Assembly: GCF_013167455.1 (NCBI RefSeq)
Contig: NZ_CP038328.1
Strand: one strand, 5' to 3'
Length of the DNA stretch: 64,000 nucleotides
Source of the DNA: Escherichia coli O157:H7
Lineage (GTDB): Bacteria > Pseudomonadota > Gammaproteobacteria > Enterobacterales > Enterobacteriaceae
In this document: positions 45,001-51,000 of the stretch, piece by piece
Position numbering within the stretch: position 1 is the stretch's first letter
Layout of the letters: each line of letters begins with the position of its first letter
Program-made: the position numbers

Positions 45001-48000
45001 AGTTTGTTTGCCCTGCCGTATTTTTCCCCGCCCTTATCGGTAAAGACGAAATAAAATGGTCCTTCACGCTCTACAGATGGTTCAGCTTCCACCAGGATTT
45101 CATTTTTTTGAGTATCGGATTCTGCCGTCTCCACTGGAGCAGTTTGTGCTGCTGACGGCTGGAGAGCATCAGTAGAGCTCTGGTCTGTTTCTTCATGTTC
45201 AAACACGCCCTTTGTCGTCAGGTATTCACTGATATATTTGTTCAGTGCAACGGGATCTTTGTGAATATCGATCGGACGTTCGCGAACAAGGCCAAAAATA
45301 GTCTGACGGTCATAGCCAAGTGCTTCGGGCTGTTTGCGCATTGATGCTGAGATACGCTTCCAGTCTTCGCGATCCTTGTCGATAACCTCATTTGTCGCCC
45401 AGCGATGGATGGTACCGTCAATGTTTCCTGCATCCACATCACCGGGCCAGAGGGCGCAGGCCAGTTCATTGTCGAGTGTTTTCCATGTCTGTTTGTATTC
45501 GCGGCGAATGGCAACAGTGACAGCCCCGGTTTTTTCAGCAGCGTTTTCAGGGTTCTGTTGGTTGACTCTGGCGCGGGCGAGATCAACAACAGACGTGTAT
45601 TTTCCGGTTTCCTTGCGTTCACCTTCGCGACGTTTTTTCCAGATGCGCATCTCTGCCTGAATTTCAGGCCATTTAGCGCCAGGCTCACATTTATGCTTAA
45701 CCCACCCGATGGCATGCAGTTTAAGTTCAGGATACATGGCGTTAACTTCTGGCATTTTCATCAACGCTTCAACGATATGTCCGCCGAATGTTGCCATGTC
45801 TTCCTGTAGTAATTCCTGTGCGCTAATCACCATATCAACGGTGATGTTTTCGCATGTGTCGAATTTAACCAGGACTGCGTTCTGTACTTCAGGGGACAGC
45901 TTGTCAAAATTGACGTTCATCGGATCGGATTCTGGTTCGACCGGTACAAAGGAAGCTGACTCCTCATCCCAGCGGTTTTCCTGCATATATTCGGTATCCC
46001 AGGAATCGAGGGCAGGGCGGGGTATGCCGGGTTTATCCTCGCAGACAATAAATTTATAAGCGCAGTCCTGAGCTGCCGGGAATTGCTCCAGAAATTGCCA
46101 GTGAAATTTTGCGCGTGCGCGACGCTCATCACCGGCTTCAATGGCAGTGGCCACCGCAACAGCGCTATCTTCTTTTATGGCCTGTTCGTCAGGAATAGCA
46201 GCGCAAATAAAGATTTTACTCATTGTGTTTTAACCTCATTACAGATTTCAGGGTGAACGAATCCCTGCCATTGCTGGCATTTTTAATCCGTTGGTATGGC
46301 GTTAATATGGCTGGCGGGTTATCCAGCCGGTGTTTCGTTATTCAGGTACAGCGATACTTTTTTTACCGGTAGGCATTCACCAGAAATTTTTTGCTCGTCT
46401 CTTGCCTGGAGGCAGGATTCTTTACTGGCATAAATTCCGGTAATAACATTCTGTGATTCACCCGTTATAAGAAAAACCGTCATCACCAGTGCAAATGCTG
46501 AAGTCATTGACGTTCTCCGAAAATACCAAGTTTAATAAGGGCAATTCGGGAAAGAATGGAATTATCATTGAGCAGATAAGGCTCATATTTCCGCATATTA
46601 ATGGCATCCTCAGTAAACGCTTTATTACTGAGCAGAACACCAATATCAAAACAACCTTCAGACGTATTAACGTTTGGTAATAACGTTTCCATTATCGCGT
46701 CCTCAACAATGAATTTTGTGATGCAGTGCCTGGTGCCTCCAGGTGACGTTAACCAGTTAACAATTAACGTCGGGTTAGTTGATGCTCGTTACGCCAGTAA
46801 AAGACCGCCTTACTGCTTTAACTGTTCCGCGTGCGCATAGCCGCATTCACCGCATCACAAAATTCACTTTAAAAAGGGCGGATATCCATTTCCGCCGAAT
46901 CACCAGAAAAGTGATAACAGAGGTTGTTGTGGCTGGGGTGTCACTTAAGCGTATGGTCAACCTGACAACCCGGTGTCCTCAACGGGGGAAGGAATAACCC
47001 CGCCATACTTACCGCCGCGCCATTTCGCGGATTGCCACAACCAGAAGCGCACGGTCGAATTAAATTTAACGACGACCTATACAGAGAGACTAACTTCGCC
47101 GTGCGCTTTCGTGTTATGCCCTGACTTTTCAGGGTAAATTAACCTGTGGAAACCTGTTTTTACTGGCGCTAATCAGTTAGCGTTTCTTGCTAACCAGCGA
47201 TGCGCGCCAGCTTCGGTTTTAAACGTTTTACTTCTGGTATACGTCATCGCGGTAAACGTGCCGTCGTGGTTGGGGAATACTCCGCACACCAGAGATTCAT
47301 TGTTGCCAAGATTGAGCATATCCATGTTGACCTCATTTACCCTTAACGCCGGGTCGCGGAACTAAAAACCTGCTGCGCTGTTATACAAAGTGTTCCCGCC
47401 GTCATGTTCATACGCCTCGGGCTGGCTACTTAACCCCTGACCACTGCCGGGTAACTCGAGGTATTGCCCGACGTTCTGTGGGGCGAGGTAGGGTGGTATG
47501 TAATAAATCTAAAAGTATTTAGTTTTTCAGTCAAGGTAAATCTAGATTAATTTAAAAAAAAGGTCGGCATTGCCGACCTCAAGTAAAGGACGTGGCGGGT
47601 TATAAGTTGAACTGTACACCTTTTGCTACGGCAACAATTTTACACTCTGGTGTAAGTAAGGATGACTGATAGCGTGGATTGAGAGGGCTTAAATACACAA
47701 GCTTCCCATCAATAACTAATTTCTTTATAGTCATAGATGGTTCATTTTTAAGCGGATCCGGAACTATTACAGCGACGATGCTGCCATTTTTATAACTTTC
47801 TCCTGGCCTTAGGATCACAGTAGCACCAACTGGGATACTCGGTGATCCTGATGGGTTATGCATTGTGTCATCAGGCATTGAAACGGCAAAATCACCTTCC
47901 TCGACATCAAAGAATGTGGTGATTCTATCGACATTTCCCATTGTTTTCTCTCCTTTTAAGATTAGGAAAGAAATCGCCTCACCCCACGAAAGGTAGGGGA

Positions 48001-51000
48001 TCTTGGTGCCTGAGGTACTTTGTACAAAAGATAATTCAGGAGACGATACTCCATATAGGAGATAGGACTCAGTAGTTCCTAATGCCTGGGCTAACTTACT
48101 TAGAGCTTTGCTACCTGGTTCGTTTAGATCTTTCTCCCAGTACCCTATAGTAACCCCAGTCACGCCTGAAAGCTTACCCAGTTCTACTTGGGTCAGCCCC
48201 TTATCTTTTCTAAGTCTCTTAAGCCTGAAGCCAAGGCTTTCCATCATTTTCTCCTGCAAATTGAATATAAATTATTTTAGATTGCATTGACCTAAAAAAA
48301 ATTATCTTGTAATCTAAAAATACTTAGATTTGGGAGGTAAAATGCGAGTTGATGAACTTGTCCAGTTTTTTGGTTCTGTTCAGAGGGTTGCCGATTTTTA
48401 TGGGATAACCCGCGAAGCTATTTACATGTGGCGTAAGCGTCCTGGTGAAATAGTTCCGAAGGGGAGGGCTGCGGAAGCTGCTGCATACTCCAAGGGGAAA
48501 TTATCTTTGAACCCAGAACTTTACAAAAAGAAGGATACCACTCAGGGCGAAGGAAAGGGGGATTCATGAAAATCAAACATGAGCACATCCGCATGGCGAT
48601 CAATGCCTGGGCCTATCCGGACGGTGAGAAAGTTCCTGCAGCTGAAATAGCCCGGACTTATTTCGAGCTGGGGATGACGTTCCCGGAACTGTACGACGAC
48701 AGCCATCCGGAAGCCCTGGCTCGTAATACCCAGAAAATTTTCCGTTGGCTGGATAAAGACACCCCTGATGCTGTTGAAAAAATTCAGGCTCTGTTACCGG
48801 CGATCGAAAAGGCAATGCCGCCTCTGCTGGTGGCCCGTATGCGCAGTCACAGCTCTGAATATTACCGTGAGATCGTCGAACGGAGGGATCGGCTGGTGAA
48901 AGATGTGGATGATTTTGTCGCAGCGGCGATCGCCTGGGGCACCCTGACTAACAGTGGTGGTCAGCCTGGTAATGCTGTTGTCGTGCATTGACCAACAATA
49001 TTCATGCCGGATTTCTTCCGGATGTTCGAGGGTAAAGTTCGGTATCAGATGAGGTGAGTATGGCTAATGCCTGGCTCAGATTGTGGCATGACATGCCAAA
49101 TGATCCCAAATGGCGAACCATTGCCAGGGTCTCAGGACAGCCAATCGCAACAGTGATGGCGGTGTATATCCACCTTCTGGTGAGTGCGTCACGAAATGTC
49201 ACGACATGTCACGGCGTGTCACTACGTGGTCACATTGATGTCACGACGGAAGATTTAGCAAGTGCGCTTGATGTGACGGAAGACGTGATTGATTCAATTT
49301 TGCATGCAATGCAGGGGCGAGTTCTGGATGGTGATCTTATTTCCGGATGGGAAAAACGCCAGGTGATGAAGGAGGATAACGGTAATGTTTCGCAAACCGC
49401 AAAATCCCCGGCAGAGCGCAAGAGAGCGCAGCGGGAGCGGGAAAGACTGCGGAAGCAGAACACTGATTGTCACGATGAGTCACGACGCGTCACGCATATG
49501 TCACGACAAATCACGACAGATACAGATACAGATAAAGAATTAAACCCCACACATAACGCGCGCATGCGCGAGAGTGCTACGACCGGTGAGTTGAATGACG
49601 CGTCGTTGCAGACAGCCGAACCTGAATACCTGGACGGCCTGAGCGAACCGATCGGGAAATTTCCGATGACTGGAGTCTGGCAACCGTCGCCGGATTTTCG
49701 ACAGCGGGCAGCAGTGTGGGGTATGGCTCTGCCTGAGCCTGAGTTTACACCTGCTGAGCTTGCCGCATTCCGGGATTACTGGATGGCGGAGGGGAAGGTT
49801 TTCACGCAGGTTCAGTGGGAGCAGAAATTTGCCCGTCACGTGCAGCACGTCAGGGCACAGGTAAAACCAGTCAGCAAGGGGGTAAGCCATGCAGCACCAG
49901 GTGGCACCGCATCACGGGCAGTTCAGGAAATTCGGGCAGCACGTGAACAGTGGGAACGTGAAAACGGATTTATCAGCAACGGAAACGGCCTGGAAGCTGT
50001 GGGAACTTATGGGGGAGGTGTATTCGAACCGCTGGACCCAGAAGAACGGGGCTGCGCCGTCGAAGCTCTGGATTGCTCAGATTGGCGCGATGACTGAACA
50101 GCAAATCCGGCAGGTCTGCCGTCAGTGCATGGACCGCTGCCGGGCGGGTGAAACGTGGCCTCCGGATCTGGCTGAGTTTGTGGCGTTGATTTCGGAGAGC
50201 GGGGCAAATCCATTTGGCCTGACGGTGGATGCCGTGATGGAGGAGTACCGTCGCTGGAGGAATGAATCCTGGCGGTACGACGGGAGTGATAAATACCCGT
50301 GGCCACAGCCGGTGCTGTACCACATTTGCCTCGAGATGCGTTCAAAGGGGATTGAGCGCCAGATGACCGAAGGGGAGTTAAAACGGCTTGTGGAAAGGCA
50401 GCTGACGAAATGGGCAAAGCATGTTGGTAATGGCCTCAGTGTTCCGCCAGTCCGGCGACAACTGGCAGCACCCAAACGCCCGCCAGGGCCAACGCCAATT
50501 GAATTGCTGAAACAGGAATATGAGCGCCGGAAGGCGGCCGGTTTTGTCTGAGTTGAGAAGTAATTTTTACCGGGAGGAAAATTTAATGGAAACCGTTTTT
50601 GACGCACTGAAAGCACTGAAAAAAGCCTCGTCGCACGAGATTGCAGCCCGTCTTGAAATCAGCCGTGACGATGCTGTTACCGAACTCTGGAAGCTGAAGC
50701 GTCGTGGCGAAGCTGATAACAAGGGGTCGATGTGGTGGCTGACGAGTGAGGCAACTGAAGCGGCCCCAAAAACCACTGCAGAGATGCTGATTAACGCGAT
50801 TGAACAGCATGGTCCTCAGTCGGCTGACGAACTGGCGTTAATGTTCGGGATTACCTCCCGCCGGGCGAATTCATCACTGGCGATGGCTGTCAGCAAAGGT
50901 CGTCTGATTCGCGTAAATCAGGACGGTAAATATCGTTACTGCATACCGGGCGATAATTTACCGGCAGAGCCGAAAGCTGCATCGGTAACGGAAACCGATG

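Follow-up and report, generated by a model that had tools for sequence, protein, structure and literature searches.

The 64-kb stretch of E. coli O157:H7 DNA analysed here (the window) matches prophage Sp14 of strain Sakai at 100% identity; its annotation names CI, Cro, DicB and an exonuclease. A cI-like gene on the minus strand and cro on the plus strand diverge from an intergenic segment of 97 bp, and a Pfam family was assigned to each of the six genes in the region. Leftward of cI the order is DUF1391, a short DicF-like RNA, DicB, DUF1482, exonuclease and int, which is a Qin/Rac-like operon. The region is a repressor/anti-repressor control region of the ordinary kind, in a prophage already known, and it is highly probable that it serves this lambdoid prophage as its immunity switch between lysis and lysogeny, with an N-less early-left operon of the Qin/Rac type. 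A literature search on the Sp14 immunity type found no study of repressor binding or transcription.

The repressor (ECs_2766, 47600..48244, minus strand) is a 214-aa protein with an N-terminal HTH and a C-terminal S24 (LexA-like) domain (Pfam HTH_3, E=1.9e-12; Peptidase_S24, E=5.2e-11), and its gene is followed by an intrinsic terminator located by scanning (47560..47580, minus strand; a 9-bp stem, 6 of its pairs GC, and then a T-run). On the other side of the gap, the annotated cro gene (48342..48569, plus strand) has a Shine-Dalgarno sequence, GGGAGG, at 48332-48337 and encodes 75 aa that match P22_Cro (E=1.2e-9). The PHROG matches of CI and Cro are likewise to families of transcriptional repressors and regulators. 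Such a divergent pair of an HTH + S24 repressor and a small Cro is the arrangement of a lambdoid switch, and it bears out the preliminary description, which had placed a CI-like repressor in an immunity region. The cII position is taken by a YdaT-family gene (48566..48991, plus strand; YdaT_toxin, E=7.4e-11), and in CP-933P and Rac the part of CII is played by YdaT (PMC9986795, PMC11879457).

Two features had escaped the preliminary description: a conserved leader RNA, taken up below, and the lack of canonical self-cleavage residues in CI. In an alignment that included LexA and the CI of mEp460, WGEAISF of Sp14 CI falls opposite VQAGMF of lambda CI, and DDTM falls opposite GNSM in lambda and GMSM in LexA. 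The cleavage residues are thus non-canonical, with EAI for Ala-Gly and DDTM for GDSM; neither an Ala-Gly or Cys-Gly scissile bond nor a Ser-Lys dyad is found in the alignment of Sp14 CI, and the catalytic Lys (KKL) is retained. Because Ala-Ile replaces Ala-Gly and the nucleophilic Ser has given way to Thr, we infer that this CI would not be cleavable in a RecA-dependent manner. The integrase of strain EDL933 is annotated as frameshifted. Taken together, a CI without canonical autocleavage residues and a frameshifted integrase suggest that the switch may be locked, or may be induced in a non-lambda way.

Palindromic operators between cI and cro, and similar sites beyond the cI terminator where OL and PL would lie, had been proposed from a first reading, and both sets stand. 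The motif is a 20-bp palindrome, AATCTAA-N6-TTAGATT, which was scored over its 14 half-site positions. Three sites in the window carry it with at most one mismatch (47506-47525, 48264-48283 and 48311-48330); all are inside the immunity region, 0.00 are expected from 100 shuffles, and no site elsewhere in the window scores 13-14/14. OR1, AATCTAAAAATACTTAGATT (48311..48330), scores 14/14, and its palindrome, aatctaaaaatacttagatt, has perfectly complementary 7-bp arms around a non-symmetric 6-bp spacer. OR3, AATATAAATTATTTTAGATT (48264..48283), and OL1, AATCTAAAAGTATTTAGTTT (47506..47525), both score 13/14; OR3 is invariant in a relative, and OL1 is identical in relatives of ~90% identity. Two probable weaker operators, OR2, GACCTAAAAAAAATTATCTT (48289..48308), and OL2, AATCTAGATTAATTTAAAAA (47539..47558), score 10/14 and are individually at chance level (17 sites of 10/14 in the window), so that they are credited only for where they lie and because relatives conserve them. 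OL2 lies 33 bp from OL1 and contains a perfect 10-mer, AATCTAGATT, and in the close relatives L003 and L006 its left half-site reads AATCTAA without a mismatch. Both the number and the registers of these weaker sites are uncertain because of their low scores and the very A+T-rich DNA (78-82% A+T in both operator regions). As assigned, the three OR operators, all of them between the two genes, are spaced 25 and 22 bp.

The operators fall on promoters. A PL-like promoter (47506..47534, minus strand), scoring 9/12 in a promoter scan, consists of a -35 TTGACT (47534-47529), a 17-nt spacer and a -10 TAGATT (47511-47506); OL1 spans its spacer and -10, and OL2 sits just upstream of its -35, so a second operator set surrounds a leftward early promoter beyond cI. 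On the rightward side a candidate PR (48287-48315, plus strand) was picked out by eye, with a -35 TTGACC (48287-48292), 17 nt and a -10 TAATCT (48310-48315) that matches only at T1, A2 and T6; it is absent from the promoter scan. OR1 overlaps its -10 and start site, and OR2 its -35 and spacer. OR3 overlaps a candidate PRM -10, TATATT (48269-48264, minus strand), likewise read from the sequence; the PRM -35 is a poor match, and the scan missed this promoter. The exact positions of PR and PRM are ones that we infer.

Relatives also argue that the palindromes are operators. In prophages of ~90% DNA identity the operators are unchanged and their flanks are variable, as the claim of conserved operators had predicted, and the motif recurs where CI is much more diverged: three CI relatives (Arsenophonus, Xenorhabdus and phage mEp460) have an identity of 42%, 46% or 54% to that of Sp14, and CTAA-N6-TTAG-type sites lie on both sides of cI in each, within DNA that is not alignable to Sp14. 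The 3+2 operator layout, too, is found in Arsenophonus and Xenorhabdus, with OR-type sites spaced 22-25 bp, OL1 and OL2 33-35 bp apart and a -10 inside OL1, and the geometry of PL is alike (TTGCAA-17-TATATT and TTGCAT-17-TAGATT, respectively). All of these repressors keep the HTH stretch GV(T/S)(G/D)V(T/A)(I/V)GYWEKD(L/I)N. Since repressors of 42-54% identity share the motif and two of them the layout, the palindromes are very probably operators for CI and Cro, and both proteins would bind the predicted sites. That they are instead chance palindromes in A+T-rich promoter DNA, or sites for IHF, H-NS or YdaT, would fit the base composition and the chance-level scores of the weaker sites. It is nevertheless very unlikely, given three sites of at most one mismatch where none is expected and a motif that flanks cI in three distant relatives and tracks a conserved HTH; moreover, the published YdaT box, TTGATT-N6-AATCAA, differs from the Sp14 motif (PMC9986795).

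The first gene of the leftward operon is a 50-aa ORF (47173..47325, minus strand) with a Shine-Dalgarno sequence, GAGG (47331-47334), 5 nt 5' of its ATG. The preliminary description had noticed this ORF and its ribosome-binding site and had called it unlisted, which was true of the ORF track then used; in public records it is ECs_2767 / WP_000367376.1, annotated in both Sakai and EDL933. It is a real gene, intact in homologous prophages and under purifying selection (dN/dS ~0.10 at dS ~0.53 over 61 alleles), as had been anticipated. The protein belongs to the DUF1391 (YdfA/YdaF) family (PF07151; E=1.3e-28; 98.8 bits, where the gathering cutoff is 27.3), which comprises 240 clusters, the named ones all from Escherichia, Shigella or Salmonella. 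Its PHROG match is phrog_751, a family of unknown function, and its AF2 model is beta-beta-beta-alpha (pLDDT 80.5). An AP2/ERF-like DNA-binding fold, in which a sheet of three strands packs against a C-terminal helix, was considered as a candidate for it.

The preliminary description had seen this ORF in the position of an N-like or other early regulator. The N-like reading, an early antiterminator that would work through a nut site of the PL leader, is largely refuted. It has the position of N, as the first gene after PL, and a terminator at 46896-46877 must be read through for expression of dicB, exo and int. Against this, the ORF has no N-family match, only DUF1391 and phrog_751, and no arginine-rich motif, and the protein is predicted to fold as a beta3-alpha domain, in contrast to the disordered N. 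A true N-like ORF, from Arsenophonus locus L008, served as a control and matched phrog_271 (E=4e-12) and Pfam N_peptide instead. No boxA-like match with two or fewer mismatches occurs near PL or PR in Sp14, the leader included, and in Rac-type relatives it is ydaG that comes first, ahead of the DUF1391 gene. The family match, the missing arginine-rich motif and the missing boxA mark the ORF as something other than an N-type antiterminator, and the N-like reading is scarcely credible.

Downstream of this gene lies the short DicF-like RNA (46871..46909, minus strand), which begins UUUCUGGUGA and continues into a hairpin and U-run, called as a terminator at 46896-46877. By scan this hairpin is the sole intrinsic terminator-like site between PL and the exonuclease gene. 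The Rfam DicF model gives no match to the Sp14 RNA; phage Tritos has a DicF annotation at its homologous stretch, and the first 10 nt at the 5' end are the same as those of K-12 DicF. The annotated cell-division inhibitor gene dicB follows in the same leftward operon (46504..46692, minus strand; Pfam DicB, E=1.3e-35). The genes ydfB and ydfC are absent from Sp14 but present in L003 and L006.

According to the preliminary description, the leftward transcript would first meet the 50-aa ORF. This is correct as regards genes, but a leader of 175 nt (~47499 to 47326) comes before, and its first ~100 nt (47391..47490, minus strand), which begin right after PL, are a conserved and structured RNA element with which the PL transcript opens. 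In Sp14 its helices are P0, CCAC/GUGG, and P1, GUCGGG/CCCGGC, with a conserved 15-nt loop, CAAUACCUCGAGUUA; after this comes an invariant stretch, AAGUAGCCAGCC.GAGGC.UA.GAACAUGACGGC. The element is near-invariant in K-12 Rac and among 85 distinct variants, and it is kept behind ~120 different promoter/operator segments; of 165 distinct upstream variants, 105 have a best promoter -10 whose end lies 34-40 nt ahead of the P1 loop. Pairing is maintained at 89.5%, whereas slid controls do not exceed 48%, and nine pairs have changed on both sides; these compensatory changes affect P0 and P1 across types, and the unpaired nucleotides are highly conserved. A model of the element (R1) scores 112 bits (E=3e-29) in Sp14 and, run with filters off, finds the element only once in the 64-kb window. 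A DUF1391 gene lies downstream in 177 of 230 loci. An Rfam search with the element gave no match, and it looks to be undescribed so far.

What the element does is a matter of weighing several readings. Our best guess is a cis-acting modifier of elongation, termination or stability of the PL transcript. We propose tentatively, as a possibility less likely than not, that it is an undescribed and widespread cis-acting element marking the 5' ends of PL transcripts in Enterobacterales prophages of the Rac, Qin-relative and Sp14 types, K-12 Rac among them. The most interesting role would be that of a new class of N-independent, put-like elongation modifier which, if true, would explain distal early-left expression (dicB, kil, recET, int) in N-less lambdoid prophages, an acknowledged open case (PMC12315714). 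Specifically, the leader RNA would be a protein-independent processive antiterminator that binds RNA polymerase while still being made, and in this way takes the place of N in prophages of the Rac/Qin/Sp14 type. The model for such a role is HK022 putL, a structured RNA of stem-loops with conserved bulges that lies at the extreme 5' end of the PL transcript in a lambdoid phage lacking an N protein (PMC9378689). The Sp14 leader shares these features and the location just downstream of the PL start; covarying helices with conserved unpaired nucleotides, retention behind so many upstream segments, the absence of a downstream boxA from 226 of 233 copies and the need to read through the DicF-like terminator all speak for the comparison. 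Yet there is no visible sequence similarity to putL and no R1 match in the HK022 immunity region, the Sp14 element is ~100 nt as opposed to ~70 nt, and it is a single copy with no putR counterpart downstream of PR. Its folding energy is no better than that of shuffles (z=+0.47), and the covariation comes from about six lineages. In type-E loci (L008 and L205, the only ones where boxA was found) boxA and an N-like gene are found beside the element, and therefore it is not simply a substitute for N. On balance a put-like antiterminator is unlikely.

A different role at the RNA level, or mere conservation by linkage at a boundary of mosaic recombination, falls just short of being probable. The RNA could stabilise the 5' end, be a site of processing, load or block Rho, or bind a factor of the host or phage. 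The boundary of its conservation coincides with that of the immunity cassette, the segment ahead of P0 is C/A-rich in all types, the 5' part is C-rich and G-poor, as a Rho site might be, and RNase III and RNase E process the homologous Qin transcript (PMC10448788). Linkage by itself, however, leaves unexplained both the compensatory changes in P0 and P1 and a conservation of ~95% beside coding DNA with a dS of ~0.5.

The arrangement suggests how the CI/Cro switch would operate. OR1, the strongest operator, would cover the -10 and start site of PR, the weak OR2 its -35, and OR3 the likely PRM, and past the cI terminator the two OL operators would bracket a good promoter that points leftward. 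Because OL1 contains the PL -10, bound CI would occlude RNA polymerase. Once repression was lifted, PL would transcribe the 175-nt leader, beginning with the structured RNA, and then the DUF1391 protein, the DicF-like RNA with its terminator hairpin, DicB, DUF1482, exonuclease and int.

Much of this plan is that of lambda, P22 and 434, which also have a divergent HTH-S24 repressor and Cro, three ~20-bp operators over PR and PRM at a spacing of 22-25 bp, another operator set at PL, downstream of cI, and a cII-position gene after cro. Sp14 differs from them in its new operator sequence, in having two recognisable OL sites instead of three, in the residues at the CI cleavage and catalytic positions, in the YdaT-family protein in the cII slot, and in the absence of rex, N and nut. 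The K-12 Qin locus (dicA/dicC-dicBp-ydfABC-dicF-dicB-ydfD; PMC10448788, PMC5069750) similarly has a repressor-controlled PL-equivalent promoter with DUF1391 (ydfA) first, then DicF and DicB. The Qin repressor, however, is the 135-aa DicA and not a 214-aa S24-domain CI, and Sp14 lacks ydfB and ydfC and has a shortened DicF variant. The K-12 Rac prophage (racR-ydaS-ydaT, ydaG-ydaF) resembles Sp14 in its DUF1391 homologue, YdaF, and in having YdaT in the cII position, but RacR and its operators are unrelated to those of Sp14, ydaG precedes the DUF1391 gene, and kilR, recE and recT stand in place of dicF and dicB. Between racR and ydaG, Rac has a leader of ~115 nt, and this is nearly identical to that of Sp14.

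The segment 46700-48600 is matched at 100% identity by O157:H7 genomes, and in Sakai it falls within a feature annotated as 'prophage Sp14, lambda-like phage' (adding 42699 to a coordinate of the Sp14 loci L001 and L002 gives the window coordinate). The annotated series opens at its left end with an integrase gene and includes a 2472-bp exonuclease gene (43752-46223, minus strand). To the right of this gene come, all on the minus strand, genes for DUF1482 (46319-46507), DicB (46504-46692), the 50-aa product of ECs_2767 (47173-47325; 'hypothetical / DUF1391 family protein') and the 'phage repressor protein CI' of ECs_2766 (47600-48244). 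Cro (48342-48569) and a YdaT-family protein (48566-48991) follow on the plus strand, with the replication genes farther right. All six annotations from DUF1482 through the YdaT-family protein are confirmed by Pfam, CI by HTH_3 and Peptidase_S24, Cro by P22_Cro, the YdaT-family protein by YdaT_toxin and the other three by the families whose names they bear (DUF1482, DicB and DUF1391). Confirmed CI and Cro, together with operator sets on both sides of cI, bear out the immunity region proposed in the preliminary description. The system is thoroughly known and the prophage annotated, and within it the Sp14 immunity region represents a new operator specificity, which helps to predict immunity sharing among O157 prophages.

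The palindrome first noticed between cI and cro lies at 48311-48330 and has perfect 7-bp arms, AATCTAA and TTAGATT, around a 6-bp spacer. Allowing at most one mismatch, AATCTAA-N6-TTAGATT occurs at three places in the whole 64 kb, 47506-47525, 48264-48283 and 48311-48330, and never in 100 shuffles; by half-site score, all other 20-mers of the window reach 11/14 at most. Two weaker sites, 48289-48308 and 47539-47558, score 10/14 each and alone are not significant, yet they complete a regular layout of three sites in the cI-cro spacer, with starts 25 and 22 bp apart, and of two more beyond the terminator of cI (47580-47560), 33 bp from each other and on either side of a promoter -35. That promoter, the leftward early promoter PL (TTGACT-17-TAGATT, 47534-47506, minus strand), was found by promoter scan, and the outer half-site of OL1 is its -10. 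A candidate PR, placed by eye and absent from the scan output, would consist of TTGACC (48287-48292), 17 nt and TAATCT (48310-48315); with PR so placed, OR1 covers the -10 and the start site and OR2 covers the -35. Also absent from the scan output is a putative PRM with a poor -35, whose -10, TATATT (48269-48264, minus strand), would lie inside OR3. We infer both positions from reading the sequence.

A genome scan for CI returned five loci only. A 96%-identical CI is found in two induced E. coli phages and one E. coli chromosome, where the DNA of the region is about 90% identical, and all the strong sites are unchanged there while adjacent bases vary, so that the operator-like sites are indeed conserved in related prophages. 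In the same relatives the left half-site of OL2 is a perfect AATCTAA. An alternative register for OL2, 47529-47548, was dropped: bases substituted in the relatives weaken its match to the motif and bring 47539-47558 closer. More distant CIs come from Arsenophonus nasoniae (52-54% identity to Sp14 CI), Xenorhabdus hominickii (46-47%) and phage mEp460 (42%); they have in common the helix-turn-helix stretch GV(T/S)(G/D)V(T/A)(I/V)GYWEKD(L/I)N, and the same kind of site flanks cI in all three. Upstream of cI, Xenorhabdus has TATCTAAACAAACTTAGATA, ATCCTAATTTCATTTAGATC and AAGCTAAAATTACTTAGTTA at 24-25 bp spacing, and downstream TTGCAT-17-TAGATT with AAACTAAGTTAACTTAGATT covering the spacer and -10. 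Arsenophonus repeats the arrangement of three plus two sites seen in Sp14, including the OL spacing of 33 bp. Because distant CIs with the same helix-turn-helix stretch carry the same sites, there is strong comparative evidence for reading them as the operators of this repressor family.

LexA and CI repressors cleave themselves in a reaction stimulated by RecA. When Sp14 CI is aligned with lambda CI, LexA and mEp460 CI, two of the sites concerned are changed. Near residues 87-92 (EAI), WGEAISF in Sp14 stands opposite VQAGMF in lambda, leaving no Ala-Gly bond, and near residues 124-128 DDTM replaces the G(D/N/M)SM of the other three proteins, with Thr for the nucleophilic Ser and the Lys retained. 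Arsenophonus CI has both changes, whereas Xenorhabdus CI is without the Gly and retains the Ser; the Sp14-type subfamily retains the S24 fold and is without the Ala-Gly. Given what is established for LexA and CI, the missing Ala-Gly bond and the Thr for Ser suggest that RecA-stimulated cleavage of Sp14 CI is probably impaired or absent. SOS induction in the manner of lambda is thus not expected, and induction of Sp14, if any, would need another route such as an antirepressor, a form of control documented for DicA of Qin (PMC10448788).

The leftward transcript first meets the 50-aa ORF, which had been thought a possible N-like regulator. This N-like identity is rejected: the protein lacks an Arg-rich motif, matches PF07151 (DUF1391; 98.8 bits) and phrog_751, where no function is assigned, and a search near PL and PR of Sp14 found no boxA. 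As a control, the N-like ORF beside the Arsenophonus leader element, described below, matches phrog_271 (E=4e-12) and Pfam N_peptide. YdaF of Rac is a clear homologue of the small ORF, and the DUF1391 family is narrow, its 240 clusters all being at least about 70% identical and, where named, from Escherichia, Shigella or Salmonella. Across 61 distinct alleles from related loci, pN/pS is about 0.14, dN/dS about 0.10 and dS about 0.53, and the three codon positions hold 11, 15 and 38 variable sites; by its family match, its homologue in Rac and this pattern of substitution, the small ORF is a true gene. Ahead of the DUF1391 gene in Rac-type loci lies YdaG (44 aa; 2356-2490 of the Rac locus L005), which matches the UBA-like Pfam family UBA_4 at 24.1 bits (cutoff 21.8).

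The 175 nt that separate PL from the small ORF are conserved far past the Sp14 immunity type. A query spanning this leader matches 3788 of 5426 complete E. coli genomes (~70%), and Rac of K-12 has the same leader sequence between racR and ydaG. Conservation begins exactly past the -10; the DNA upstream is unrelated and comprises about 120 different promoter/operator segments, and the best -10 ends 34-40 nt ahead of a conserved loop in 105 of 165 distinct upstream variants. Two IMG/VR scans gave more than 230 copies of a leader element, some 100 nt long and of about six sequence types. Copies lie at 47391-47490 (minus strand) in the window, at 2546-2645 in Rac, at 1061-1164 and 2897-3000 in the Arsenophonus locus (L008), and at 2500-2599 in locus L134. 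In the window a covariance model picks out a single copy (112 bits); the stretch downstream of PR lacks one, and so do HK022, mEp460 and the Xenorhabdus locus. No Rfam family matches the element (E up to 1, 45500-49500), and a literature search on its core sequence gave nothing relevant.

Two stacked helices, P0 and P1, vary between types in a compensatory manner. Variants of P0 include CCAC/GUGG, CGCG/CGCG, CCAG/CUG and GCA/UGC, and those of P1 GUCGGG/CCCGGC, CAUCAGG/CCUGAUG, GGCAGGA/UCCAGCC, AGCCGGA/UCCCGCU and CACCAGG/CCCGGUG. Nearly invariant are the loop of 15 nt (CAAUAC...GAGUUA) and, on the 3' side, the block AAGUAGCCAGCC.GAGGC.UA.GAACAUGACGGC. When 85 distinct sequences are aligned by MAFFT without fitting (a fitted alignment agrees), 89.5% of cells are paired, against at most 48% with slid partners; nine pairs are altered on both sides, against at most four in the slid controls, and no shuffle reached the observed covariation score. 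Single-sequence folding energy is no better than that of shuffles. RNAalifold returned a different, weak structure (-6.8 kcal/mol) for the 85 sequences; it lacks covariation and was dropped, and the manually derived P0 and P1 were kept since these do covary. A pseudoknot P2 (CUUCG/CGAGG) and a hairpin P3 show one compensatory cell or one-sided changes only, P2 being broken in type C as well, and are proposed tentatively.

The covarying helices point to a structured RNA that is likely to function in cis. One such function would be antitermination of the put kind: reliance on put-like RNAs has been conjectured for lambdoid phages without N (PMC12315714), and in its position, size, covarying stems and conserved bulges the element recalls HK022 putL, which likewise starts at the PL start (PMC9378689). 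The two are, however, unlike in sequence, no copy accompanies PR, and in type E the element occurs together with N. The two loci of this most divergent type, L008 (173-3039) and L205 (1790-3599), each contain two tandem immunity regions, one DicA-like and one CI-like, with a leader element after each. In Arsenophonus, each region is followed by a promoter, the element and a boxA-like CGCTCTTTAACA, the first also by an N-like 103-aa gene; a downstream boxA is absent from the other 226 of 233 copies. King et al. in 2011 reportedly described other put-like RNAs, a set with which the element may overlap, and for all these reasons we regard a put-like antiterminator as unlikely. As a likely cis-acting RNA at PL starts in roughly 70% of the complete E. 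coli genomes, the leader is a candidate to explain how lambdoid prophages without N control their early genes, in operons that carry toxic inhibitors of cell division along with recombination functions. It deserves follow-up above all, and the non-canonical CI after it.

Farther along the leftward operon, upstream of dicB, lies a shortened DicF-like RNA of 39 nt (46909-46871, minus strand), unannotated in RefSeq. It starts with UUUCUGGUGA, which we take to be the 5' end of DicF, and runs into a terminator hairpin; its 3' end is the sole intrinsic-terminator-like site from PL to the exonuclease gene. The Rfam DicF model did not match it in scans of 45500-49500 (E up to 1) and 46840-47180 (E up to 10). 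By their position in the operon, DicB and the DicF-like RNA would sit under CI control in Sp14. The close relatives L003 and L006 carry a ydfA-like gene, ydfB, ydfC, the DicF region, dicB and a ydfD-like gene, which is the dicBF arrangement of Qin (PMC5069750, PMC10448788); unlike these, Sp14 is missing ydfB and ydfC. The only match in the Rfam scans was a sub-threshold one to STnc100, a Salmonella sRNA family, from the DicF-like terminator to the dicB start (46660-46878, minus strand; 29.5 bits against a gathering threshold of 47, E=0.001).

At the cro/ydaT junction, GGGATTCATGAAAATCAA (48559-48576) resembles the published YdaT box TTGATT-N6-AATCAA with two mismatches; such matches occur at chance frequency in a box search, and the candidate was dropped. 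In Rac and CP-933P the box sits within ydaT and drives a PRE-like promoter. The O-like replication gene contains two clusters of GTCACG repeats (49188-49250 and 49469-49520) with 10-bp phasing, which look like origin iterons, and past the integrase end of the prophage there is an ORF of 2685 aa (32963-41020, minus strand).
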